64,000 bases of DNA from a bacterium (GTDB taxonomy: Bacteria > Margulisbacteria > Marinamargulisbacteria > JABGVJ01): positions 1,517-65,516 of the forward strand of contig JABGVJ010000013.1 in the NCBI GenBank assembly GCA_018646105.1. The letters run 5' to 3'. A model generated the notes under the pieces. That model searched no databases, was not told the origin of the DNA, and saw only the letters and a list, made by a program, of their open reading frames with translations. A program made the position numbers and the translations under genes. Positions 1,930-53,988 of this stretch are shown piece by piece (positions within the stretch are counted from its first letter, which is position 1; every line of letters starts with the position of its first letter).

Positions 1930-2842
1930 AATATTTATAACCGGAGCTTCTGGTTGCGTAGGACATTATATCGTAGAAAAATTTTTAAATAACAAAAATT
2001 ATGAACTTCATCTCTTGATACGTAATCCTAAAAAATTAAAATTTAATGCGCTAAATTATGATAATCTCCAAATACATCAAGGGTCACTAGAAGAAATCGC
2101 CAAGTTTAAAGATCTTTTGGCGAGCGTGGATTATATAATTCATATAGCCACGGCCTGGGAAAATTCAGATTTGGCTTATTTAATAAATGTAGAAAAGACT
2201 CTGGAACTTTTACATTATGGGAAAAATTGTAAAAAAATAATTTATTTTTCTACCGCTAGTATTTTAGGTAAAAATAATCAACCAAAAAAAGAAGCGCGTC
2301 TTTTTGGAACGGGTTATGTAAAAACCAAATATTTAGCTTATGAAAAAATAATGGCTGACAATGAATTAAAACAAAAAACCATTACTTTATTTCCAACCTT
2401 GCTTTTTGGAGGAGATAGCACACACCCGTATTCTCATGTAAGTAGTGGTATTAGACCTAACCTAAAATACTTAAAACTATTACGTTTCATTTATATGAAT
2501 AGCGCTTTCCATTTTATACATGCTGCAGACATTGCCACTATTACTAAATATTTAATTGATAATGATGTTGTAGAAAAAAACCTAGTGTTAGGTAATGCGC
2601 GTATCACAGGTAAAGAGGTTATTAAACAATTATGCGACTTTTTTCGAATAAAAATGTTTTTTCGAATAAAAATGTTTCCTGATTTTATTTTCTTTTTAGC
2701 TAAGTTGTTACGTATAAAAATAGCTCCTTGGGATAAACATTGTATTGAACATCCTTTTTTTGACTATGATGTAGTTAGCCCCGCCAGTTTTGGGCTGCCT
2801 ACAAAGTATGAAAACTTAAAAAGTCTTTTAAAAGATGTGTGA
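1922..2842 (+). CDS. NAD-dependent epimerase/dehydratase family protein
   Basis: N-terminal Rossmann motif IFITGASGCVGHYIVEKFL; ends with TGA stop; contains perfect in-frame 18-bp tandem duplication (2639-2674). Confidence 0.7.
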   Translation: MYKIFITGASGCVGHYIVEKFLNNKNYELHLLIRNPKKLKFNALNYDNLQIHQGSLEEIAKFKDLLASVDYIIHIATAWENSDLAYLINVEKTLELLHYGKNCKKIIYFSTASILGKNNQPKKEARLFGTGYVKTKYLAYEKIMADNELKQKTITLFPTLLFGGDSTHPYSHVSSGIRPNLKYLKLLRFIYMNSAFHFIHAADIATITKYLIDNDVVEKNLVLGNARITGKEVIKQLCDFFRIKMFFRIKMFPDFIFFLAKLLRIKIAPWDKHCIEHPFFDYDVVSPASFGLPTKYENLKSLLKDV

Positions 2843-3046
2843 AAGGAACTCGCTAATACAATGAAATAAATATAGTGGCCATATAACGGATTTCAGTATG
2901 TGAAAAAAATAAACTTTGTGCTAAACTAAATCTGGTCAATATTCTCTTTTAGGCGTTTACTATAATCTTTTTAAACCCTAGTTATGTTTTAGGGAGGGCT
3001 GGCTTCGCTTGAAAATATGTCAAAAGAAAGAAGGTCTGGAAACTAA

Positions 3047-5023
3047 ATGAATCACGAATATAATGCTACCCAAATAAAAGTTTTAGAAGGTCTTGAAGCT
3101 GTTCGTAAAAGACCTAGTATGTACATAGGCTCTACGGGCACACCTGGTTTAAACCATCTTGTTTACGAAGTAGTAGATAATAGTATTGATGAAGCCATGG
3201 CGGGCTTTTGTGATGTGGTAACAGTCACCATCGAACCTGATAATATCGTTACGGTAATTGATAACGGCCGTGGAATTCCAATTGATATACATAAAGATAA
3301 AGGACTACCCGCTGTTGAGGTGGTAATGACGACTTTACATGCTGGTGGAAAATTTGAAGGAAAAGGCTATAAAGTATCAGGCGGTTTGCACGGAGTAGGA
3401 GTTTCCGTAGTTAATGCCTTAGCGGAATGGTTAGTAGTAGAAGTTAAAAGAGATGGTAAAAAATATACGCAAAAATATTTTAGAGGGACTCCTAAAGAAA
3501 AATCTGGAAAACTAGAAGATTATAATGGTGATGATAGTGGAACGTTAATTCGCTTTAAGCCTGATCCGCAAATTTTTGAGTCTTGAGAATTCACTTCCGA
3601 AATAATCGATCATAGATTAAAAGAATTGGCCTTTTTAAATAAAGGTATAAAAATTATTTTTAAAGATACACGTTATGAAACCCCTACTGAAAAAGAATAT
3701 GTTTTTGAAGGCGGTCTTAAAGCTTATGTGGAAAATATTAATGAAAAAAAAGAACCTTTGTTTGCGCCTCCTATTTATCTAAAAAAAACCAGAGAACCTT
3801 ACGAAATAGAAGTCGCTATTCAATACGTTTCTGATTATTACGATGAACAGGTAATTTCTTTTGCTAATAATATTAGAACCAAAGAAGGTGGAACGCATAT
3901 CGCCGGCTTTAGAACTGCCTTAACTAGAGTAATCAACTCATTTGCTAAAAAATATGATTTGATAAAAGATAAAACCAAAAATTTTTCTGGCAATGATTTA
4001 AAAGAAGGTCTGACTGCTGTTATTAGTGTAAAACTACCACATCCTCAGTTTGAAGGGCAAACCAAAACCAAACTAGGAAACTCTGAGCTTAAAGGCATAG
4101 TGGATTCCATGGTAGACGAGAGCCTGACAGACGCAATTGAAACTACCCCTAAAATAGCAAAATTAATTATTAATAAAGCAGTTATTGCGCAAAGGGTGCG
4201 TGAAGCTACCAGACGAGCCCAAGATTTAGCGAGAAGAAAAAGCAGTCTGGAAAGCACAACGCTGCCAGGTAAGCTTGCGGACTGCTCTGATAAAGACCCT
4301 GCAAATTGCGAAGTATTTATTGTTGAGGGTGATTCTGCCGGAGGTTCCGCCAAGCAAGGAAGAGACAGAAACTTTCAGGCTATTTTACCTTTACGCGGTA
4401 AAATTTTAAATGTAGAGAAAGCAAGATTGGATAAAATTTTAGCAAATGAAGAAATTAAAGCTATGATTACAGCGCTTGGGCCAGAAGCTATTTCCGGTCT
4501 TTCTTCAGAGGATGACAATGAAGAAAACGGGACGGAAACTGAAGATGAAGATATAAAAAGAACTCTGAGTAAATTAAGATATCATAAAATCATCATCATG
4601 ACAGATGCTGATGTGGACGGATCTCATATTAGAACGCTGCTGTTAACTTTCTTTTTCAGACATGCAAAAGAAGTTATCTTGGCCGGTGGATTATATATTG
4701 CGCAACCACCTTTGTATTCTATAGGCCGCGGAAATGCAAAACAATACGCTATTGATGATGCGGCACTAGAGAAACTGTTAAAAGAAAAAGATATAACAAA
4801 AGAAGGGGCTCACATTCAACGCTACAAAGGTCTGGGAGAAATGAACCCTGATCAGCTTTGGGACACGACCATGGACCCAGAAAAAAGAAGTATGTTGCAA
4901 GTGACTATTGAAGACGCTGAAGAAGCGGACGATATTTTTACCACTTTAATGGGGAATAAAGTAGAGCCAAGGCGTGAATTTATTGAAAAATACGCCAAAA
5001 ACGTACGTTGGATAGATGTTTAA
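3047..5023 (+). CDS. gyrB: DNA gyrase subunit B, single reading frame interrupted by one in-frame TGA codon at 3584-3586 (possible pseudogene, sequencing error or recoding)
   Basis: ORFs 3047-3586 and 3626-5023 are in the same frame; concatenated translation aligns colinearly with GyrB (…[25 protein letters not shown]… vs B. subtilis …[27 protein letters not shown]…) with no indel; GHKL ATPase, TOPRIM (EGDSAGGS) and C-terminal domains all present. Confidence 0.85.
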
Positions 5024-9155: not shown

Positions 9156-9626
9156 TTGAATTTTGTAACTTTGTGCGCGATTTTGGGAGCTGGTTTTAGT
9201 ATGGGCATTGGAGCTTTAGGGCCGGCCATGGGCGAAGGCATAATTGCGCTAAATGCAGTTAAAGCATTATCGAGACAACCTCGTGCCGCGGGCAAACTAA
9301 TGCGTATTATGTTGATAGGACAGGCCATAACCGAAACGCCGGCTATTTTTGCTTTGGTAATATCCTTACTGCTATTGTTTCAGGACAGCGGGGATTCATT
9401 TGTAAAAGGGGTGGCTTTTTTAATAGCGGGTATAGCGATGGGTATATCAACTCTAGGCGCTAGTTTTGGAGCCTCTTTCCCTGGAAAAACGGCTAGTACA
9501 GCAGTGGGCAGACAGCCCGAAAATATTGAGGCCTTGATGGTTAGCATGATAATTGGACAAGCTATAACTGGGACTACGGTTATTTACACGACCGTGGTAG
9601 CTATGATTTTAATTTTTGTTGTTTAA
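9156..9626 (+). CDS. atpE: ATP synthase c subunit, tandem-fused double hairpin (4 TM, 156 aa); second hairpin lacks the ion-binding Glu
   Basis: Two c-subunit repeats, each with the RQP loop. Hairpin 1 helix 2 is LIGQAITETPAIF (Glu present); hairpin 2 helix 4 is IIGQAITGTTVIY (Glu replaced by Gly). Confidence 0.8.
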   Translation: MNFVTLCAILGAGFSMGIGALGPAMGEGIIALNAVKALSRQPRAAGKLMRIMLIGQAITETPAIFALVISLLLLFQDSGDSFVKGVAFLIAGIAMGISTLGASFGASFPGKTASTAVGRQPENIEALMVSMIIGQAITGTTVIYTTVVAMILIFVV

Positions 9627-9708: not shown

Positions 9709-9960
9709 ATGGAAGGAATAAGTGGAGCAGATTTAATTAAAGTGGTTTCTTTAGCAGTGGCGGGAATTACAATGGCTATTGGTTCAATTGGGCCAAGTCT
9801 AGGAGAAGGTTTTGTGGCAGCAAAGGCATGCGAAGCGCTTGGTAAAAGACCGGATCAAGCTGAAGTTATCACTAGAACAATGCTAATTGGACAGGCAGTT
9901 ACAGAAACAACTGGTATTTACTGTTTAGTTATAGCTTTGATTCTAATTTTTGTTGTTTAA
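9709..9960 (+). CDS. atpE: ATP synthase c subunit (single hairpin, 83 aa) with E/E-T-T-Y putative Na+-binding motif
   Basis: GPSLGEGFVAAKA…LIGQAVTETTGIYCLVIALILIF; aligns to Ilyobacter/Fusobacterium c subunits with Glu at positions 32 and 65 equivalents, T66, T67, Y70. Confidence 0.9.
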   Translation: MEGISGADLIKVVSLAVAGITMAIGSIGPSLGEGFVAAKACEALGKRPDQAEVITRTMLIGQAVTETTGIYCLVIALILIFVV

Positions 9961-28995: not shown

Positions 28996-29072
<77 letters not shown>

Positions 29073-43440: not shown

Positions 43441-44213
43441 TTCAAAGTAAAGATAATCAGAAATTAAAATTAGCTAAACTTCTTTTTTCCAGCAAAAAAA
43501 ACATTAAAAAAACAAATTTTTTTATAATTGATAATATCAAATTAATTAAAGAAATACACTTAAAATCACCCGAACAACTTGCCTACATATTAGTTTGCGA
43601 AAAAACAAATTTAGACTCTTTGGTTTTTAACAATCCTACTAAAATACATTTTATTGAAAAAAACATATTCAAAAGCTCATTTACAGACAAAACAAAAGAA
43701 TCAGTATTGGCGGTTTGTAAAGTAAAAAAGCCTGATTACTTAGCGATATTACCAAAATTAAAAAACATTTTGATCCTGGATCAAATATCAATTCCTCAAA
43801 ATTTTGGAGCCATCATAAGAACAGCCGCTGCCTTCAATATTGATGCCGTTTTTTATACCAAAGGAACCACTTTTTATTATAACCCTCAAACAATACGCGC
43901 CGCTGCTGGTTATATTTTTGAAATTCCTATATTAGAATTAAATAAGGACACTTTAATCTTTTTACAAGAAAAAAGCTTTGTTTTTTACGTTTTAGATATA
44001 GCTGCAAAAGAATATTTACAAGATGTAAATTTTAGTAAAAAGAACGCTTTTGTTTTAGGGTCAGAAGGAAATGGCATTATTTCAAATGATTTAAAAAATG
44101 ATTTGAAGACTAAAAAAATAAAAATTCCTATGAAAAACAAGGTTGAGTCCTTAAACGTGGCTGTAACAGCAGGAATCCTGCTTTACCATCTTTTTTTTAA
44201 AAAAATAATTTAA
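43434..44213 (+). CDS. TrmH/SpoU-family RNA 2'-O-methyltransferase
   Basis: SPOUT motifs NFGAIIRTAAAF, VLGSEGNG, ESLNVAVTAGILLY. Confidence 0.8.
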   Translation: MLIQSKDNQKLKLAKLLFSSKKNIKKTNFFIIDNIKLIKEIHLKSPEQLAYILVCEKTNLDSLVFNNPTKIHFIEKNIFKSSFTDKTKESVLAVCKVKKPDYLAILPKLKNILILDQISIPQNFGAIIRTAAAFNIDAVFYTKGTTFYYNPQTIRAAAGYIFEIPILELNKDTLIFLQEKSFVFYVLDIAAKEYLQDVNFSKKNAFVLGSEGNGIISNDLKNDLKTKKIKIPMKNKVESLNVAVTAGILLYHLFFKKII

Positions 44214-45031
44214 TCTAAAACGCTAAGAATTCTTTCAAATTCAGCCTTGGATTTATAATAAATTTCTATTCTTCCTCTTGTTTCTTTACCTGAAATTTTA
44301 ATTTTTGTAGAAAACTTACTGGCTAAGTTTTTTACAAATTTAGTAAAAATCTTATCTACTGCTTTTTTTTGCTTTTTTTGGGTTACTAAAGCCTCTGTCT
44401 CTCTAACATTTAAATTATTTACGGCTATTTTTTTTAAGATCTTATATATAAGATCTTCGCTCTCAAGAGAAAGAAGAGATCGCGCATGCCCCTCTGTTAA
44501 ACTACCGTTAATAATTTCTCTCTTTATGGATTCTGGGAGATTAAGCATTCTTAAAGTATTAGTAATCGCCGAGCGGCTTTTTCCAAAAATACCAGCTAAA
44601 TCGTTATGGGACAAATTAAATTCTTGAATTAGTTTTTCATATCCATAAGCAATTTCTATACAATTTAAATCTTCTCTTTGTAAATTTTCAATTAATGCCA
44701 ATTGAATAGAATCTCTATCGGAAACATTTTTAATAATAGTAGGAATAGTATCTTTACCCGCTAAAAGACTCGCCTTATACCTTCTTTCTCCAGCTATTAA
44801 CTCATAACCATCTTCTTTTTTTCTAACCAAAATGGGCTGGCAGATACCATATGTTTTAATAGATTCTGCTAAAGACTGAATAGCTTTTTCATCAAAATAT
44901 TGCCTGGGCTGATATTTATTTGGGCATATTTCCTTTATTGGTATATTAGTAATAGTTTTTCCGGATGATAAAAAATTTCGAGGAATTAAGGCCTCTAATC
45001 CTTTTCCTAATTTTGGTTTATTGTTTGACAC
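44210..45031 (-). CDS. parB: chromosome partitioning protein ParB
   Basis: ParB box LIAGERRYKAS, HTH, 273 aa; coupled with parA. Confidence 0.9.
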   Translation of the reverse strand: MSNNKPKLGKGLEALIPRNFLSSGKTITNIPIKEICPNKYQPRQYFDEKAIQSLAESIKTYGICQPILVRKKEDGYELIAGERRYKASLLAGKDTIPTIIKNVSDRDSIQLALIENLQREDLNCIEIAYGYEKLIQEFNLSHNDLAGIFGKSRSAITNTLRMLNLPESIKREIINGSLTEGHARSLLSLESEDLIYKILKKIAVNNLNVRETEALVTQKKQKKAVDKIFTKFVKNLASKFSTKIKISGKETRGRIEIYYKSKAEFERILSVLD

Positions 45032-45791
45032 GCTGTAATACCTCCTTTGTTAAATTAAAATAAGCCGTAGCTCCTGAACTATTTGGATTATACAAAGAAA
45101 TAGGCAGCCCATGACTTGGTGCCTCTGTTAATTTGATATTTCTAGGTATAATTGTTTCAAAGATTAAATCACCAAAAAATTCTTTAGCATTTTTGATAAT
45201 ATGCTTGTTCAAGACTGTTCTTTTATCAAACATCGTTAATAAAATCCCTAATAATTGTAAGTTTTCATTTAAATTTTCTTGTATAAGCTGGACTGTTTTT
45301 AATAAATTAGCAATTCCCTCTAAAGCAAAATATTCGCACTGCAACGGTATTAAGGTATGAGTTGAAGCCACTAGCGCATTCACAGTCAACAGACCTATGG
45401 ATGGCGGGCAATCAATAATAATAATGTCATAATATTTTTTGATTTTTTCAAGGCTATTTATTAAGCATGTTTCACGTGAAACAACGTCTACTAATTCTAT
45501 CTCGGCCCCTGAAAGATCTTTAGAGGAAGGAATTAGGTTTAAATGGTTGAAAACAGTTGGATAGAGACATTCTGTTATTGGGGTTTGTCTAATTAAAACA
45601 TCGTAAATTGTCTTTTTTATTTTTTTTTTGTCTAAGCCGACACCTGAAGTAGCGTTGGCCTGTGGATCTAAATCAATTAAAAGTGTTTTGTGCTTTTTTT
45701 CACTTAAATATGAAGCTAGATTTATAGAAGTGGTGGTTTTTCCCACCCCTCCTTTTTGGTTAACAATTGAGATAATAATTGGGTTATTCAT
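45018..45791 (-). CDS. parA: chromosome partitioning ATPase ParA
   Basis: Deviant Walker A KGGVGKTTTSINLA; start moved to internal Met (MNNPIIISIVNQKGG), N-terminal 41 codons of ORF-track unlikely. Confidence 0.9.
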   Translation of the reverse strand: MNNPIIISIVNQKGGVGKTTTSINLASYLSEKKHKTLLIDLDPQANATSGVGLDKKKIKKTIYDVLIRQTPITECLYPTVFNHLNLIPSSKDLSGAEIELVDVVSRETCLINSLEKIKKYYDIIIIDCPPSIGLLTVNALVASTHTLIPLQCEYFALEGIANLLKTVQLIQENLNENLQLLGILLTMFDKRTVLNKHIIKNAKEFFGDLIFETIIPRNIKLTEAPSHGLPISLYNPNSSGATAYFNLTKEVLQRVKQ

Positions 45792-45998
45792 AGCTGTAAA
45801 AGTATAGCATAGTTTTAAATTTACTAAAATAATTAGTCCGTTGTTATTTTTAAATTTTTGAGGTTCAACCCTCTCTTTTTTCGCACATGTTACCACAAAA
45901 GCAGATTCGCACATGCTCTTATTTAATCTTTTTTATAGAATTTTAGGGAAAGCTTTTATATAATACAAATTATATGCTTTTATAAAAAGGAGAATTAA

Positions 45999-47558
45999 AT
46001 GACAGCTACTATAAAAATTCATGAAAAAGATTTAGATAAAACTGAGGTTTATAGAAAGTTAATTTTATTAACTAAAAAGCGCGTAGATTTAAAAAAAATA
46101 TTAACTAAAAAGCGAATAGAAAAATGTATTATAAAAACTCCTTTATTGGGTTTTTCTTTTGCTGCATCTTTAATTAACGACGAGATTTTAAAGCTTTTGC
46201 AAAAATTAGCAGATGAACAAATGGTTGTAGAAAAATATCAACAAATTCTAAACGGATCTATAATGAATGTTGGTGAAAAGAGAGCTGTTTTACACCATAA
46301 AACTAGATCAAAAAAACGCGGGTTTTATGGTAAAGAACAAAAAAAAATAGCTGCTTTTACAAAAAAAATCCATACGGGGACAATAAAAGGCGCTACAGAT
46401 AAAAAATTTGAGACCGTGGTGCAAATAGGTATCGGTGGGTCGGATTTGGGCCCCAGGGCGTTATGTCTCGCTCTAGAGAAAAGCTGTCAGCATGACGCGC
46501 TTTTGAAAGCGAGGTTCATTGCCAATGTTGATCCGGATGATGCTCACCAAGTTTTAAATTCTATTGATTTTGAAAAAACGCTTTTTATTGTAGTTTCTAA
46601 AAGCGGAACTACTCAGGAAACGTTGACTAACTTAAATATCATACGTAAAAAATTCTTAGAAATTGGTTATAAAAAAGAAAATTTAAAAAAACATTTTATT
46701 GCGGTTACGGGAAAAGGAAGTCCTTTGGATAATCCTCAAAAATATTTAGCTTCCTTTTATATTGATGATTGTATAGGCGGGAGATATTCTTCAACCAGTG
46801 CAGTAGGAGGAGCTATTTTAAGCTTAGCTTTTGGGGCTCCTGTTTTTGAGAAATTATTAAAAGGGGCTTTTGTTTTAGATGAAAATGCTAACAAACGAAA
46901 TATAATGGAAAACATGTCTTTAATGGCCGCCTTAATCGGTGTTTGGGAGCGCTCTTTTTTAGGATTGCCTTCAAAGGCAATTATTCCTTACAGCGAGGCC
47001 TTAAGCCGGTTTCCTGCTCATTTACAGCAACTAGACTGTGAAAGCAATGGTAAAAGTGTAAATATTAATTTCAAAAAAATTAATTATCAAACAGGGCCTA
47101 TGATTTTTGGAGAACCCGGTACTAATGGGCAGCATTCTTTTTTTCAAAAATTACATCAGGGTTCTGATGTTATTCCAATACAATTTATTGGTTTTAAACA
47201 CGCCCAAATTAATAAAGATAAGATATATATGCGCTCTACTAGTCAAAAAAAACTTATTTCTAATCTGGTAGCTCAAATAGCGGCTTTTGCTCTGGGTAAA
47301 TATGATGAAAATGAGAATAAAAATTTTTCAGGGAACCGCCCTAGTAGTTTGATTTTTGCAGATAAACTAACTCCTTATACATTAGGTGCTCTTTTAGCTT
47401 TTTATGAAAACATAGTAATGTTTCAGTCTTTTATCTGGAACATAAATGCTTTTGACCAAGAAGGTGTGCAGTTGGGTAAAATTTTAACAAAAAAAATTCT
47501 AGCCACGGAACATTGTGATGATGAAATACTAAATTCTTTAATGGCTATTTTTCAATGA
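45999..47558 (+). CDS. pgi: glucose-6-phosphate isomerase
   Basis: 519 aa; IGIGGSDLGP and SKSGTTQET PGI signatures. Confidence 0.9.
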   Translation: MTATIKIHEKDLDKTEVYRKLILLTKKRVDLKKILTKKRIEKCIIKTPLLGFSFAASLINDEILKLLQKLADEQMVVEKYQQILNGSIMNVGEKRAVLHHKTRSKKRGFYGKEQKKIAAFTKKIHTGTIKGATDKKFETVVQIGIGGSDLGPRALCLALEKSCQHDALLKARFIANVDPDDAHQVLNSIDFEKTLFIVVSKSGTTQETLTNLNIIRKKFLEIGYKKENLKKHFIAVTGKGSPLDNPQKYLASFYIDDCIGGRYSSTSAVGGAILSLAFGAPVFEKLLKGAFVLDENANKRNIMENMSLMAALIGVWERSFLGLPSKAIIPYSEALSRFPAHLQQLDCESNGKSVNINFKKINYQTGPMIFGEPGTNGQHSFFQKLHQGSDVIPIQFIGFKHAQINKDKIYMRSTSQKKLISNLVAQIAAFALGKYDENENKNFSGNRPSSLIFADKLTPYTLGALLAFYENIVMFQSFIWNINAFDQEGVQLGKILTKKILATEHCDDEILNSLMAIFQ

Positions 47559-47982
47559 TAATTGTAATAGGGCCGTCATTGATAATCGTTACCTTCATGT
47601 CGGCGCCAAATACACCTGTTTTAACTTTAGTATGAAAGCCGGTTAGCTGTTGAACCATATAATCGTAAAGCGGTTCAGCTATAGAGGGCGGCGCGGCCTG
47701 AACAAAACTAGGTCGACAACCTTTTTGACAATTGCCGTATAAAGTAAATTGAGAGATTAGTAAAAGCTCACCCTCTATTTGTTTTAAACTTAAATTCATT
47801 TTGCTGTTTTCATCGCTAAAAATTCTGAGGTTTAATAATTTTTGCAAGCAATAATCTGTAGTTGTATGGGTATCATTATGTGTAATACCTACTAAAACTA
47901 ATAACCCTTTGTTTATTTGGGCATGTATTTTATGGTCGATTGCTACCGATGCGTGCTTTACTCTTTGGACAACTAATCTCAT
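47545..47982 (-). CDS. dtd: D-aminoacyl-tRNA deacylase
   Basis: MRLVVQRV…SQFTLYG…GVFGADM…NDGP motifs; 145 aa. Confidence 0.9.
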   Translation of the reverse strand: MRLVVQRVKHASVAIDHKIHAQINKGLLVLVGITHNDTHTTTDYCLQKLLNLRIFSDENSKMNLSLKQIEGELLLISQFTLYGNCQKGCRPSFVQAAPPSIAEPLYDYMVQQLTGFHTKVKTGVFGADMKVTIINDGPITIIIEK

Positions 47983-48152
47983 CTAAATAATCCTCTTCTG
48001 TTTTTATATTAAAGTGACAGGCTTCTTGTTTATTGGCTTGTTACTAAGCCGTAAGACACTGTATTTTTTTATTATATAATAATTTACAAAAGTTTGTTTT
48101 GTATAGTATTATTAGCCAACATTGAAATCAATGTTTAGTATAAACCTAATAA

Positions 48153-48351
48153 TTATCCACAATTATTAGATCTTATTGTTGATAAACTTGTTGACAACCT
48201 TGTTAATAACTTTTTTTCGTGAGTAATTACTATTTAGTTAATATTTTTTGTGGGTTAGATTTCCTTATAATATATTAAACTTTACCAAAAAAAAGAGCGC
48301 TCGGTTAATTTTATTTTGTTTTTATTTTTTTTGTGGATAATTTGTGGATAA
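48153..48351. promoter_or_regulatory. DnaA-box cluster upstream of dnaA (putative oriC half / dnaA autoregulatory region)
   Basis: Perfect TTATCCACA at 48153-48161; two perfect TGTGGATAA at 48332-48340 and 48343-48351; three tandem 12-bp degenerate boxes TTGTTGATAAAC / TTGTTGACAACC / TTGTTAATAAC at 48176-48210. Confidence 0.6.
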
Positions 48352-48377
48352 TATAATAAAACAGGTGGTTTTTTACG

Positions 48378-49703
48378 ATGAATACGGTTTGGAATTCAAT
48401 TGTTACGGTTTTAAAAGAAAAGCTTTCGGATCCTAATTTTCAAATATTTTATAGTTCTACAAAACCTATTAATTATTTAGAAAACATTCTGACTTTAAAG
48501 GTAGACAGTCAGTTTTCTAAAGCATGGGTTATGGAAAAATGTGATCCATTAATTAAGGTTTTTTTTAAAGACACTGAATATGAAAATATAGTGCTAAATA
48601 TTATAGTAGAAGAACCACAAGAAGAAGAGCCCGCGGCTTTACCTCTTTTTAAGCGGCCCGTTTCTAATGTTTCTAATAGACTAAACCCTAAGTTTTCTTT
48701 TGAAAATTTTATAGCTGGTAATAATAATAGATTTGCACACGCCGCGGCCATGGCTGTAGCTAAAAGTCCAGCTAAAGCTTATAACCCTTTGTTTATCTAT
48801 GGTCCGGTTGGTATAGGTAAAACCCACCTTTTACACGCTATTTGTTGGTATTTAATAAAAATTAATCCTGGTATAAAAGTAAAAATCGTTACTTCTGAAA
48901 AGTTTACGAACGAACTGATTAATTCCATAAAAGATAGAAATGTGAAAAATTTCAAAAATAATTATAGAAATATAGATGTATTGCTAGTTGATGATATACA
49001 ATTTTTAGCGGGAAAAGAAACGACTCAAGAAGAGTTCTTTCATACATTTAATGAATTACATGGAAACAATAAACAAATCGTTATGACGTCGGATAGACCG
49101 CCTAAAGATATTCCCACATTACAAGATAGGTTACGAACCAGATTTACCTGGGGGTTAATTGCGGATATACAACCACCGGAACTAGAAACACGTATTGCTA
49201 TTTTAAAAAAAATCACAGAGATAAATAATATTATTATTTCTGATGAAATTTTACACTTTGTAGCAACTCAAATCCCTAGTAATGTAAGGGAACTAGAAGG
49301 CGCCTTAACGCGTATAGTGGCTTATTCATCTTTATTGAACACCGAGGCGACTCTTTCTATAGCAAGTAATGTAATACGAGATATAGTAACAATAAAACAA
49401 GAAAGACCATTAACGATTAGTTTAATAAAAAGAAAAGCTTGTGATTATTTTAATATAGACTTTGATAGATTATCTTCAAAAAACAGAACAAGGGATTTGG
49501 CATATGCGAGACAAATAGCTATGTACTTAGCAAGAGAACTAACTAATGTTTCTTTACCTAAAATTGGTGAGAATTTTGGAAACCGTGACCATACAACAGT
49601 AATGCATGCTTGTGATAAAATAAAAAATTTAATAGATACTGACAGTAATACAAAAAATATTATTAATATATTAATTTCATCTATTAAAAATGCGGGAGCT
49701 TAA
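48378..49703 (+). CDS. dnaA: chromosomal replication initiator protein DnaA
   Basis: 441 aa; AAA+ Walker A GPVGIGKTHLL, LLVDDIQFL, C-terminal DNA-binding domain. Confidence 0.95.
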   Translation: MNTVWNSIVTVLKEKLSDPNFQIFYSSTKPINYLENILTLKVDSQFSKAWVMEKCDPLIKVFFKDTEYENIVLNIIVEEPQEEEPAALPLFKRPVSNVSNRLNPKFSFENFIAGNNNRFAHAAAMAVAKSPAKAYNPLFIYGPVGIGKTHLLHAICWYLIKINPGIKVKIVTSEKFTNELINSIKDRNVKNFKNNYRNIDVLLVDDIQFLAGKETTQEEFFHTFNELHGNNKQIVMTSDRPPKDIPTLQDRLRTRFTWGLIADIQPPELETRIAILKKITEINNIIISDEILHFVATQIPSNVRELEGALTRIVAYSSLLNTEATLSIASNVIRDIVTIKQERPLTISLIKRKACDYFNIDFDRLSSKNRTRDLAYARQIAMYLARELTNVSLPKIGENFGNRDHTTVMHACDKIKNLIDTDSNTKNIINILISSIKNAGA

Positions 49704-49732
49704 TTAGCTTCTACGCTGTTTAGATATTAAGG

Positions 49733-49950
49733 TTGTTGATTAGTTGTTGATTAGTTGTTAATAAATTGTTGATAAATTGTTAAAATAATCATATAAAAAG
49801 AAAGTGGTTTGAGTTATCCTCAAATTATAAAATCTAAAAAAGGGGTTTTTAAGTTTAAAAGAGAGGTTATCCACATATTAACAGCTCTTACTAATACAAT
49901 ATATAATATAATTATTAATTAATAGTAGTTATATATAATAAATAAAGGAG
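49733..49950. promoter_or_regulatory. DnaA-box array plus AT-rich unwinding-like region between dnaA and dnaN (putative oriC)
   Basis: Five head-to-tail 11-bp repeats TTGTTGATTAG x2, TTGTTAATAAA, TTGTTGATAAA, TTGTTAAAATA (49733-49787); TTATCCTCA (49814-49822); perfect TTATCCACA (49867-49875); then >70 bp of nearly pure A/T (49880-49950). Confidence 0.6.
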
Positions 49951-49958
49951 GTATTTAA

Positions 49959-51101
49959 ATGAAATTTAAGTGTTCTAGTTCTTTGTTACAAAAAGGGGTT
50001 AATATCGTTGAGAAAGCGGTTTCTCAGAAAACCAATTTACCTATAATGGAAAATATTTTTATGGAGTTAAAAGATCATAAATTGAAAATGATGGGTAATG
50101 ATTTGGAATTAGGTATCGAGTATTTTATTTCTATCGAAAACATAGAACAGGAAGGGGCTGTTTTATTAAAAGCCAAGACAATTAGTAGTATTGTTTCTAA
50201 GTTAGATAACCAGCTACTTAGTTTACAAGTTGATGAAAATAAAAAAATTATTATTAATGCTGATAAAGTGGATTTTAATATTCTTGGTACTGATGTGTCT
50301 GAATATCCTGTTTTCCCGCAGGTTGAAGAGGGCCTTTCTTTTGAGCTTGAAGTTCGTGATTTAAAAGAATTACTTAAATACACTATTTTTGCGGTTTCTT
50401 TTGATGAAACTAAGGAATTTCTAAATGGTATTTTAATAAAAAATGAAGAGGATTATTTGTATTTTGTTTCTACAGATGGGTATCGACTTTCTTTGAAGAG
50501 AAAAAAAATAACTAAACCAGCTACTGATTTTTCCGCAATAGTTCCTTTTAGAGTCATGAATGAATTGTATAAAATTTTACAAAATATAGATCCTGATGCG
50601 AAAATTAAACTTAATATTTCAACTAATCAGGTGTCGTTTATGATGGATGGTTTTTTATTGGTATCTAGGGTTATCCAGGGAACTTTTCCTGATTATAAAC
50701 AGGTTTTACCTAAAGAATTTGATAATGTCATTACGGTCGGTAGAAGAAATTTTATTCAAGCGGCAGAAAGAGCGTCTATTATAGCTTCCGTTTCTAATAA
50801 TGTGGTTAAATTGATTTTTAGCGATGTTTTAGAAATTAAGGCGAACGCTCCTAAAATGGGTGGTTTTAATGAAGAAATTAATATTACCAATCAAAACATA
50901 AAGGGTATAGATAATTTAAAGGTAGCTTTTAATGTTAGACTTCTTTTAGATGTAATGAAAACTCTAGAAGCTGATGATGTTTTGATCGAAGTTAATGATG
51001 AGTTAAAACCATGTGTAATTAGATCTGTTGCTGATGAAGACTATACTTATATTATTATGCCTATAAGAACAAGTGACTATAAGAATGAAGATGATTCTTA
51101 A
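49959..51101 (+). CDS. dnaN: DNA polymerase III beta sliding clamp
   Basis: 380 aa, three-domain clamp organisation, position after dnaA. Confidence 0.9.
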   Translation: MKFKCSSSLLQKGVNIVEKAVSQKTNLPIMENIFMELKDHKLKMMGNDLELGIEYFISIENIEQEGAVLLKAKTISSIVSKLDNQLLSLQVDENKKIIINADKVDFNILGTDVSEYPVFPQVEEGLSFELEVRDLKELLKYTIFAVSFDETKEFLNGILIKNEEDYLYFVSTDGYRLSLKRKKITKPATDFSAIVPFRVMNELYKILQNIDPDAKIKLNISTNQVSFMMDGFLLVSRVIQGTFPDYKQVLPKEFDNVITVGRRNFIQAAERASIIASVSNNVVKLIFSDVLEIKANAPKMGGFNEEINITNQNIKGIDNLKVAFNVRLLLDVMKTLEADDVLIEVNDELKPCVIRSVADEDYTYIIMPIRTSDYKNEDDS

Positions 51102-51114
51102 ATAAGATTTTGTA

Positions 51115-51588
51115 ATGCAGTATATTTTTGAGATATTAAAAAAAAATAGTAAGTATAAAACTATTACCAAAGATTTAGAACGAGGAATTGTAATTAAGAA
51201 GAATTGGGAAGGTCTTTTTGGTAAATTAGCATCTGAATTAAAGTATGGTTATTTAAAAAAGGGCTTGTTGGTCATAGAATCCAGAAATCAAATGTGGGTA
51301 AATGAAATAGATTTTTATAAAAACGATTTATTAAAAAAGATTAATAGTTTGTTTGCTAGAAAGGTCGTTTATAATTTAAAAATTGTTTTTGGTTTTTCTG
51401 CGGACGAGGTTTTTACTCCAACAACTAAAGTGAAAAATACAAGTATTTCTCTACATGAAAAGGTTTTAAAAAAAATACAACTGAAAAGAAAAGCCGGTTA
51501 TAAAGTTTGTAAGGTGTGTAAAATTAATTTAACAAGTAATGAGATTTGTGTTTTGTGTAAAATAAAAACAAACAGACCCATTAGGTAA
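51115..51588 (+). CDS. DUF721 (DciA-like) protein with C-terminal Cys4 zinc ribbon
   Basis: Position immediately after dnaN typical for DUF721; C-terminal CKVCK…CVLCK. Confidence 0.55.
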   Translation: MQYIFEILKKNSKYKTITKDLERGIVIKKNWEGLFGKLASELKYGYLKKGLLVIESRNQMWVNEIDFYKNDLLKKINSLFARKVVYNLKIVFGFSADEVFTPTTKVKNTSISLHEKVLKKIQLKRKAGYKVCKVCKINLTSNEICVLCKIKTNRPIR

Positions 51589-52623: not shown

Positions 52624-53988
52624 TTAGTCTGTTTGGTTTAGGGCGGCTATAGCAGCACCTAAGAGGGATCCATTTTTAGTTAACACAAGGTTTATTTTTT
52701 TATTATTATTTTTAAAGATATTATTTAAAGAGGATATCATTCTTTCTGAGTATTTATAATATTTTTCGAAAATAGAGCCATCGATAGCAACGACATGGTT
52801 TTGGGAAAGAGTGGGGTCGATTTTTTTTAAAGATCCGGCTAAACAAGCCGCGGCTATTTTTGCGCTACGGTTAGAAATAAGTTGGATGATTTTTTTTGCT
52901 TTGATTCTAGTGGCTAGAGTAGATTCGATTTGGAGGGTAGTTAAGATTTGTTTGGTTTTTTTTAAGCCTAAAGAAGTATCTTTTTCTATTTCAGATAAAT
53001 AGGGGGTATGAAAACTGTTTTTTTTGTGAATGAGGTGTGAGGACGGTAAATTAGTAAGGGTTTTTAAAATTATTAATCTAAAGAGCTCGCCTAAATATGC
53101 CCCTGAAATCATTTTTTCAGCTATTTGTTGCCCGGGGTTTTCTGAATTTTGGTCTAATGTTTTATCAAACTCAGTGCGAGGAATAATTTGTTGAATAGCA
53201 AAATCCCCAGATTCGGTAACATAAATCATTTTGTCTATTAAAAGGCAAATATTAGTTCCGCTACCAAGTATCATAGAAACATCGCAATTTTGATTAAAAT
53301 AAGCTTTGGTGATGAGGGTGCCTGTAGTGTCGTTTAAAAGAGCTTTTATTTTTATATTGGAAAGGTGGATTTTTTTTAGAGCGTTTTGTAAAAGGACATG
53401 GGGGTCTTTGCCTTTAATTTCTGTTTCGCAGAATTCTTTGGATAAGGTTATGATTTGGCCATGGCTAGCATTTTTAGCGTTTAAATGGAAGCTAAAGGTA
53501 AGGCCTAAAGAAATGTCTGTTTGGTTGTTTTCTTGCGAGATAAGTTTACGAATGTGTTGCGCTATGTGGTCAAAAATAAGCAGAGGGTGTTTTTTTTCAA
53601 TAGGACTAATTTTTTTTTGAATTTTTTTTGAGATATCTATTTCTTCTGGATTAATTATTTTAGGATCTAAGTTTACTTTTAAAATTCTTAAATTTGAGCC
53701 GCCCCAATCAATCGCTAAGGTAATCCCGCTTTTTTTTTGAGAAGAAGGCTTAATATGGGTTTTCAGCATTTTGAGAGAGCTTTTTTTTTGATGTAAACCG
53801 TTATTTATTTCAGTTAGAAAAAATAGGGTGATATCTATAAGGGTTTGAGAAGAAAGAGTAAGCTGTTTTTTTAAGGATTGATGGTGTGAAGATATTTTAG
53901 GAAGAGATATTTTACTAAAAGACGGAGACAGAGGGGCTTTGTGCTTATAATGTTTAAAAAGATTGGTTTTTAAGGCCTGTTTTTTCAT
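52624..53988 (-). CDS. hexokinase-family sugar kinase
   Basis: Hexokinase signatures LAIDWGGSNLRILKV, LGLTFSFHL, ALLNDTTGTL, GSGTNICL, ISGAYLGE, VAIDGSIF, GSLLGAAIAA. Confidence 0.8.
   Translation of the reverse strand: MKKQALKTNLFKHYKHKAPLSPSFSKISLPKISSHHQSLKKQLTLSSQTLIDITLFFLTEINNGLHQKKSSLKMLKTHIKPSSQKKSGITLAIDWGGSNLRILKVNLDPKIINPEEIDISKKIQKKISPIEKKHPLLIFDHIAQHIRKLISQENNQTDISLGLTFSFHLNAKNASHGQIITLSKEFCETEIKGKDPHVLLQNALKKIHLSNIKIKALLNDTTGTLITKAYFNQNCDVSMILGSGTNICLLIDKMIYVTESGDFAIQQIIPRTEFDKTLDQNSENPGQQIAEKMISGAYLGELFRLIILKTLTNLPSSHLIHKKNSFHTPYLSEIEKDTSLGLKKTKQILTTLQIESTLATRIKAKKIIQLISNRSAKIAAACLAGSLKKIDPTLSQNHVVAIDGSIFEKYYKYSERMISSLNNIFKNNNKKINLVLTKNGSLLGAAIAALNQTD

Follow-up and report, generated by a model that had tools for sequence, protein, structure and literature searches.

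In a 64-kb stretch of contig JABGVJ010000013.1 from an uncultured member of the Marinamargulisbacteria (the window, in whose coordinates positions are given unless a relative is named), the gene for the initiator DnaA lies between two A+T-rich spacers, one separating it from dtd on the left and the other from dnaN, the gene for the beta clamp, on the right. While describing the anatomy of both spacers, this account provides a comparative assessment of strand composition across homologous loci in related genomes (cited by L numbers), as well as hypotheses on why the left flank of the locus has so flat a skew. The dnaA-dnaN spacer is most likely the chromosomal replication origin (oriC) of this genome, working like incC, the unwinding half of the Bacillus subtilis origin.

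Perfect TTATCCACA 9-mers number four in the 64 kb, at 48153(+), 48332(-), 48343(-) and 49867(+), and all four lie inside the two spacers flanking dnaA; the chance expectation is 0.62, and none of 100 shuffles reaches four. When one mismatch is allowed, 7 of the 28 boxes in the window fall within the 650 bp of both spacers. When two are allowed, there are seven boxes in 47983-48377 against a shuffle mean of 1.7 (P=0.0005) and six in 49704-49958 against a shuffle mean of 1.2 (P=0.001), so that the cluster of DnaA boxes above background that is looked for in an oriC is present in the form of 13 boxes in 650 bp (P<=0.001). Two tandem arrays are reported by Tandem Repeats Finder, one at 48176-48209 with a period of 12 and 2.8 copies of the unit TTGTTGATAAAC, and the other at 49732-49781 with a period of 11 and 4.5 copies, at 89% matches, of the unit GTTGTTGATAA. 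Every unit of both arrays holds TGTTGATAA or a similar 9-mer, that is, a leftward-facing box with one or two mismatches. An earlier interpretation made from the letters alone (the sequence-only reading) had listed three perfect 9-mers and three tandem 12-bp degenerate boxes upstream of dnaA, and all of these are borne out (48153, 48332 and 48343; 48176-48209). Its five 11-bp repeats between dnaA and dnaN do form an array, but only four of the units are boxes at two mismatches or fewer and the fifth is not. The two near-perfect boxes that it placed 3' of dnaA are both there, that at 49867 being in fact perfect and that at 49814 (TTATCCTCA) having one mismatch. Its '>70-bp pure A/T tract' before dnaN was overstated, as the tract comprises 62 bp at 90% A+T and its longest pure run is 27 bp (49898-49924).

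In B. subtilis, incC consists of distal boxes, proximal boxes #6 and #7, DnaA-trios (3'-GAT-5' opposite 5'-TTATCCACA-3') and an AT-rich region (PMC6669920, PMC8287927). The basal unwinding system has been defined as a box with at most two mismatches, plus an optional second box with at most four, located within 16 bp of the triplets, of which there should be at least three in succession reading 3'-NAN-5', ideally GAT, opposite 5'-TTATCCACA-3' (PMC8287927). The dnaA-dnaN spacer of the window holds these parts in the same order (Table 1). Within its proximal pair, TTATCCACA resembles box #6 and TATTAACAG resembles box #7; the pair matches the relatives' consensus TTATACACATATCCACAG at 15 of 18 positions, and its second 9-mer matches their consensus TATCCACAG at 7 of 9. 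The perfect box at 49867-49875 is 9 bp from the first triplet, and four consecutive trios stand opposite TTATCCACA, although 12 of the 28 boxes in the window pass the same rule by chance. The pair is followed directly by a G/C-containing triplet, CTA-type triplets and an AT-rich duplex, with 74 bp to dnaN. An easily melted element thus lies beside a correctly oriented box, 3' of 5'-TTATCCACA-3': position 49894 begins the 51-bp duplex with the lowest stability anywhere in the 64 kb (free-energy change, dG, of -43.4 against a mean of -61.3 +/- 4.9), and among the window's boxes with no more than one mismatch, only the proximal one has 85% A+T or more after it.

Table 1. Genes and sequence features of the dnaA region, in window coordinates
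Feature	Position	Strand	Remarks
parB	44210-45031	-	Pfam
parA	45018-45914	-	Pfam
parS	45468-45483		Perfect palindrome TGTTTCACGTGAAACA inside parA, 2.9 kb left of dnaA; sole perfect match in the window
dtd	47545-47982	-	Pfam
dtd-dnaA spacer, box cluster 1	47983-48377		395 bp, 76% A+T
Perfect DnaA box	48153-48161	+	TTATCCACA
12-bp array, three degenerate leftward boxes	48176-48209	-	48177 TGTTGATAA, 48189 TGTTGACAA, 48201 TGTTAATAA; mismatches 1, 2, 2
Two perfect tandem boxes	48332-48351	-	TGTGGATAA-TT-TGTGGATAA, 11-bp pitch; end 26 bp before the dnaA ATG
dnaA, initiator (441 amino acids)	48378-49703	+	Pfam Bac_DnaA 7.6e-73, Bac_DnaA_C 2.9e-30, DnaA_N
dnaA-dnaN spacer, proposed origin proper, equivalent to B. 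subtilis incC	49704-49958		255 bp, 78% A+T
Distal 11-bp head-to-tail array	49732-49781	-	Leftward boxes at 49734, 49745, 49756, 49767 (mismatches 2, 2, 2, 1), plus a decayed fifth unit
Box with one mismatch	49814-49822	+	TTATCCTCA, rightward-facing
Proximal tandem boxes	49867-49884	+	Perfect TTATCCACA at 49867-49875, abutting TATTAACAG at 49876-49884
DnaA-trio-like triplets	49885-49896	-	Top strand CTC TTA CTA ATA = bottom strand 3'-GAG AAT GAT TAT-5'
AT-rich tract, putative DNA unwinding element	49888-49949		62 bp, 90% A+T
Ribosome-binding site of dnaN	49944-49951	+	AAAGGAGG
dnaN, beta clamp (380 amino acids)	49959-51101	+	Three DNA_pol3_beta Pfam domains
DUF721/DciA-like gene (157 amino acids), candidate helicase-loading factor	51115-51588	+	Pfam DciA E=3.1e-5

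The same module is found throughout the relatives. In species-representative genomes, the closest matches to the DnaA of the window (60-66% identity) come from Candidatus Marinamargulisbacteria and other Margulisiibacteriota metagenome-assembled genomes; leaving aside the same population, a metagenome scan returned no DnaA relatives between 77% and 100% identity, the nearest being at most 77% identical on partial contigs and 66% identical over the full length. All 28 of the Margulisbacteria relatives in which dnaA and dnaN are adjacent have the module in one order, namely a TTATCCACA-like 9-mer, a TATCCACAG-like 9-mer, a G/C spacer (usually 0-4 bp, longer in L026 and L028), CTA-type triplets, an AT-rich tract and then dnaN, at a median distance of 74 bp. 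Clear CTA runs include CTA x5 in both L004 and L039 and CTA CTA CTA TTA CTA CTA in L023, and boxes of the TGTTGATAA/TGTTAATAA type or TGTGGATAA occupy the same distal position as the array of the window. A strict form of the module pattern has 16 matches in 557 kb, every one of them in the dnaA-dnaN spacer and on that strand. Perfect boxes reach 5.7/kb in the relatives' upstream spacers and 2.7/kb in the downstream ones, against 0.044/kb in the other 541 kb, a 60- to 130-fold enrichment. The arrangement extends to the Firmicutes loci L036, L038 and L041, with a proximal pair of TTATCCACA TATTCACAG in L038, and the module of Peptoanaerobacter stomatis, also of the Firmicutes, reads TTATCCACA TATTCACAG CTACTACTAATATTACTACTA.

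Strand composition changes at the same spacer. The measure of skew was G versus C at the third position of codons, read on the + strand (GC3 skew), and change points were sought by maximum likelihood; for this purpose the window had been extended, by way of its proteins, to an 82.8-kb composite (-9.4 kb to 72.8 kb). The composite has a single significant change point, at 49643-49694, which is the end of dnaA and abuts the spacer (log-likelihood ratio 100, support interval 47797-50066). Here, the skew climbs from +0.08 to +0.45; a rise is the change to be expected of an origin rather than of a terminus. The DNA-strand term accounts for this rise, at +0.08 on the left and +0.45 on the right, and genes of both orientations right of the site share the same + strand excess of G; an artefact of coding strand or codon usage was ruled out by a third-position coding-strand term of only 0.01-0.02. 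An assembly chimera at dnaA was also ruled out as the source of the step, since the exact DnaA with identical gene order on both sides occurs in at least six independently assembled contigs and the relatives step at the same spacer. The sequence-only reading, which had called the region a putative oriC, proposed a GC-skew analysis as its check, and the sole change point does fall at 48-50 kb and is a rise, but there is no clean cumulative minimum.

The same assessment was applied to relatives whose loci, which extended no further than +/-10 kb, offered sufficient flank left and right. A significant change point was obtained for 16 relatives and was a rise in all 16; it lay within 1.5 kb of the module in 12 and within 3 kb in 15, with a median offset of -204 bp. 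More generally, 23 of 25 loci have a higher skew on the right than on the left, and the paired difference of dnaN minus dnaA is +0.25 (p=6.6e-6), dnaA resembling the left flank and dnaN the right flank. In many relatives, there is a true sign reversal at the homologous site. Loci in which dnaA and dnaN have come apart provide a natural control. In L016, dnaA is 6 kb from dnaN, and a module of the same kind (2492-4700) is located 5' of dnaN, after a reading frame that is RsmG/GidB-like as judged by eye from its translation; the DnaN of L016 is 50% identical to that of the window. The skew of L016 reverses sign, from -0.48 to +0.33, at 226 bp from this dnaN-side module, and there is no reversal at dnaA. 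Conversely, L001, L007 and L030 have dnaA without dnaN next door, and they keep the perfect boxes upstream of dnaA but have neither module nor skew step. These loci show that the module on the dnaN side marks the skew switch and that the boxes linked to dnaA do not.

The boxes upstream of dnaA appear to serve another end. In the equivalent spacers of relatives they are mostly leftward-facing, and perfect or near-perfect leftward boxes, often in tandem (e.g. L002, L013, L054), stand just 5' of the dnaA start in most of them, even where dnaA is not adjacent to dnaN. The upstream cluster (47983-48377) is most likely an operator through which DnaA represses its own gene, and the tandem pair at 48332-48351 is likely to be the autoregulatory operator. 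As the cluster accompanies dnaA and not the skew switch, autoregulation is its best-supported role. An operator of this kind is expected to have high-affinity boxes that overlap or abut the dnaA promoter and stay with dnaA wherever it is found; the window has two perfect boxes shortly before the dnaA start, where they would adjoin a putative promoter, and equivalent boxes are kept with dnaA in relatives in which it lies away from the skew switch. Such an operator accounts for the upstream cluster only and explains nothing of the module between dnaA and dnaN. A second unwinding module was not found 5' of dnaA, where a T-run left of the TGTGGATAA pair lacks NAN triplets and the strict scan is also blank. 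Autoregulation of dnaA, which the sequence-only reading had offered as the alternative to an origin, is the better reading for the upstream cluster and not for the dnaA-dnaN spacer. The behaviour of L016 and of L001, L007 and L030 suggests that the upstream half is dispensable for the skew switch in relatives; by analogy with incAB of B. subtilis, it may possibly act as an auxiliary half of the origin, helping by looping.

Several observations weigh against the spacer being an ordinary bidirectional origin. At least 59 kb of left flank has a GC3 skew of +0.08 and is statistically homogeneous, when about -0.45 would be predicted for a bidirectional origin at equilibrium; a mosaic flank was ruled out, there being no significant internal change point (maximum log-likelihood ratio 3.1, P=0.26). 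Cumulative skew consequently bends at the site after a flat shoulder on the left but has no clean minimum there, the sign does not reverse within the window, and the skew evidence for oriC is that of an inflection. Among the relatives, L004, L039 and L009 have a skew of +0.3 on the left. Most genes are head-on to forks leaving the site (co-oriented, 43% on the left and 17% on the right), including gyrBA, the atp operon and ribosomal protein genes. Finally, the trios of the window are degenerate, with one perfect CTA; the window failed the strict module scan, which requires at least two CTA; and the loose published rule (three NAN within 16 bp) is unspecific in DNA this rich in A+T. Because of that lack of specificity, the loose rule was dropped as stand-alone evidence and used only together with positional homology, and the trio call rests on the position that the triplets share with the (CTA)2-6 runs of relatives. 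As to gene orientation, the sequence-only reading had been factually right in its caveat that genes around the site undergo no leading-strand switch. The caveat is uninformative in this clade, however, because in the pooled relatives the coding capacity that runs with departing forks amounts to only 54% on the left and 45% on the right, and yet the skew switches there.

The simplest reading of the flat left skew is that the flank has changed its direction of replication and has not yet re-equilibrated, since the neighbourhood of the module has been rearranged between lineages and recF is missing after dnaN in the window. According to this reading, which is offered tentatively, the spacer is an origin with ordinary replication, and the left flank, flipped by a rearrangement, would by now have covered approximately 40% of the distance between +0.45 and -0.45. 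Within the clade, the surroundings of the origin are a hot spot of rearrangement. An ftsW-mraY-murF-murE-sigma-FabA-like block (61675-69643) lies 12-20 kb right of dnaA in the window, and eight relatives have it, similarly oriented, directly to the left of dnaA (L014, L054, L011, L057, L017, L004, L039, L009); the skew of the block is positive right of the module in the window and negative left of the module in L014, L054, L011, L057 and L017. In L057 and L017, parAB is on the opposite side and inverted. A flank on its way between two equilibria would also fit with the strand term being lowered by the same fraction at codon positions 1+2 (+0.02 versus +0.13) and at position 3 (+0.08 versus +0.45), and homogeneity is expected if the flank was switched as one block. 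Against this stand the lack of a breakpoint, or of a closer relative, by which to date the event, and the fact that L004, L039 and L009 share their left gene order with relatives whose skew is negative and equilibrated, which calls for extra events or very different rates. This reading is a sub-case of the spacer being the origin, and it does not compete over the identity of the site.

A genuine competitor holds that the boxes regulate transcription only, through dnaA autorepression and control of dnaN, and that the active origin is located more than 59 kb to the left, the window being replicated from left to right. This is quite improbable, though it has some points in its favour: the left flank is weakly positive in skew and not negative, the + strand carries gyrBA, the atp operon and the ribosomal protein genes of the left flank, the upstream clusters of L001, L007 and L030 demonstrate that boxes can accompany dnaA away from an origin, and a promoter-like site, TTAACA-18-TATAAT (11/12), overlaps the proximal boxes. 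However, a sigma-70 promoter and terminator scan of the region gave nothing above chance (17 promoter-like sites versus 13.5 expected). Moreover, regulation of transcription does not account for the fivefold jump that a skew unaffected by coding strand makes exactly at the spacer. Nor does it account for the matching jump of relatives there, which in many of them is a true sign reversal, for the reversal in L016 that tracks the dnaN-side module, or for the conservation of the full module with its CTA triplets and AT-rich tract. Similarly improbable is a real origin that is not simply bidirectional, with a second origin to the left or a leftward fork used in about half of the cycles, such that the left is copied both ways and has no net skew; the flat left flank at all three codon positions beside a right flank of +0.45, and the recurrence in relatives of unequal sides in both directions (left/right, +0.3/+0.7 in L004, L039 and L009 and -0.55/+0.1 in L018, L020 and L027) would suit it, but stochastic use of two origins should leave a gradient or an internal step and none was detected in the left flank, many relatives have an ordinary sign reversal, and scans of the 64-kb window turned up neither another module nor another box cluster.

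The site is most likely a canonical Bacillus-type origin, and the call of a putative oriC made from the sequence holds for the dnaA-dnaN spacer, given its conserved unwinding module, the sole change point located there and the steps of relatives at the same spacer. As in the incAB-dnaA-incC layout of B. subtilis, box clusters lie on both sides of dnaA and the unwinding half is between dnaA and dnaN, with distal boxes, a proximal tandem pair facing the triplets, a short G/C spacer, CTA-type triplets, an AT-rich tract and dnaN. The window differs in that its distal boxes, weak sites of the TGTTGATAA type, repeat regularly every 11 bp, in that its trios (CTC TTA CTA ATA) are more degenerate, in that the organism is a diderm of a phylum that is sister to the Cyanobacteria, and in that dnaN is followed by a DciA-like gene and not by recF. 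Helicase loading in B. subtilis involves DnaD/DnaB/DnaI. The bipartite origin of Helicobacter pylori has oriC1 5' and oriC2 3' of dnaA, and it is the downstream half that contains the unwinding element together with boxes and trios (PMC8287927, PMC8235120). The window shares with it the two box clusters split by dnaA and, on the downstream side, a putative unwinding element. The dnaA gene of H. pylori is not known to have dnaN as its next gene, and binding at oriC2 is supercoiling-dependent. The bipartite Bacillus/Helicobacter-like label given by the sequence-only reading stands for the layout, which is conserved in relatives, and not for a demonstrated functional requirement for both halves. 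Within the Cyanobacteria, a dnaN-adjacent box-and-trio module of Synechococcus elongatus has been shown to unwind (PMC8287927). The module of the window is likewise directly 5' of dnaN, and L016, with its dnaA elsewhere, has exactly the cyanobacterial arrangement; dnaA is still adjacent in the window, so its layout resembles that of the Firmicutes. The weak head-to-tail sites of the window, with a 2-bp gap (11-bp pitch), are also like the low-affinity arrays of Escherichia coli oriC. In E. coli, a strong box is believed to serve as the anchor from which DnaA oligomerizes along such an array. The E. coli oriC is not known to lie beside dnaA or dnaN, and it has 13-mer repeats, IHF/Fis and control by GATC methylation.

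Based on the B. subtilis model, DnaA would fill the distal array, and looping would raise the local DnaA concentration at the proximal boxes. A DnaA-ATP filament would then extend from these boxes onto the bottom-strand trios, 3'-GAG AAT GAT TAT-5', and stretch that strand, which would melt the adjoining AT-rich tract. Loading of the helicase would come next, with probable help from the DciA-type factor whose gene follows dnaN, and the forks would leave. These steps are borrowed from the model system; what the present locus contributes is a conserved anatomy and its coincidence with the switch in strand bias.

The remaining genes of the neighbourhood can be summarized briefly. The gene assignments of dtd, dnaA, dnaN and parA/parB are all correct by Pfam. 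The genes pgi, parA and parB are located just left of the dtd-dnaA region, with parAB approximately 2.5 kb to the left of dnaA (the sequence-only reading had put it at ~2.6 kb), and the position of parS and parAB fits an origin-proximal location. The Pfam score of the DciA-like product is borderline, at 24.6 bits against a cut-off of 24, and its orthologue comes after dnaN-recF in relatives. In those genomes, recF lies between dnaN and the DUF721/DciA-like gene (e.g. 12730-13833 in L014); it is absent from the corresponding interval of the window, 51101-51115, and no match to recF was found across the 82.8-kb composite. Rfam and tRNA scans found nothing in the dnaA region, the single tRNA of the window being a tRNA-Arg at 28996. 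To the left, gyrB (3047-5023, + strand) has an in-frame TGA at 3585-3587 that divides it into open reading frames of 179 and 465 amino acids, and it is intact, at 658 amino acids, in other assemblies of the same population (L067, L068); the TGA is a strain variant or a sequencing error. Recoding of TGA was ruled out, as TGA terminates 11 open reading frames, including typical ATGA overlaps, and gyrB is intact elsewhere. In the ERZ508549 assembly (L069, 13392-14576), the first 394 codons of gyrA are fused to an HSP20-domain segment, and different genes (VanW, L32, NusB, RNase III, SMC) lie downstream of the junction; the fusion is due to a structural variant or else to chimeric assembly. Two genes for the ATP synthase c subunit adjoin each other in the atp operon, one of double length (9156-9626, 156 amino acids) and one of normal length (9709-9960, 83 amino acids). 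On the right, a eukaryote-type hexokinase gene (454 amino acids; Pfam Hexokinase_1 and Hexokinase_2) at 52624-53988 on the - strand adjoins thyX and dnaE.

A bolder proposal is that, in the Marinamargulisbacteria, the module 5' of dnaN shifts its chromosomal position and replication is asymmetric, with tens of kilobases on one side copied about equally in both directions by means of a second origin or a poorly used fork. This is unlikely; if true, asymmetric replication would deprive one flank of strand bias, in a manner reminiscent of the irregular replication that some Cyanobacteria are reported to have. That sister phylum includes species with irregular skew and DnaA-independent replication. 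For the present, the one-sidedness of the skew is a minor puzzle; it does not amount to a discovery. A literature search found no published description of a replication origin for the Margulisiibacteriota, and the spacer described here would place the origin for this uncultured phylum, sister to the Cyanobacteria. The comparative skew test, which stacks change points across relatives and adds the natural control of dnaA and dnaN apart, is a further outcome of the analysis. In practical terms, the origin may serve as an anchor to orient and close these metagenome-assembled genomes, as well as for estimates of growth rate from coverage. The Bacillus-type module of box, trio and AT-rich tract is conserved base for base in this phylum, which supports the published view of the module as ancient and widespread.

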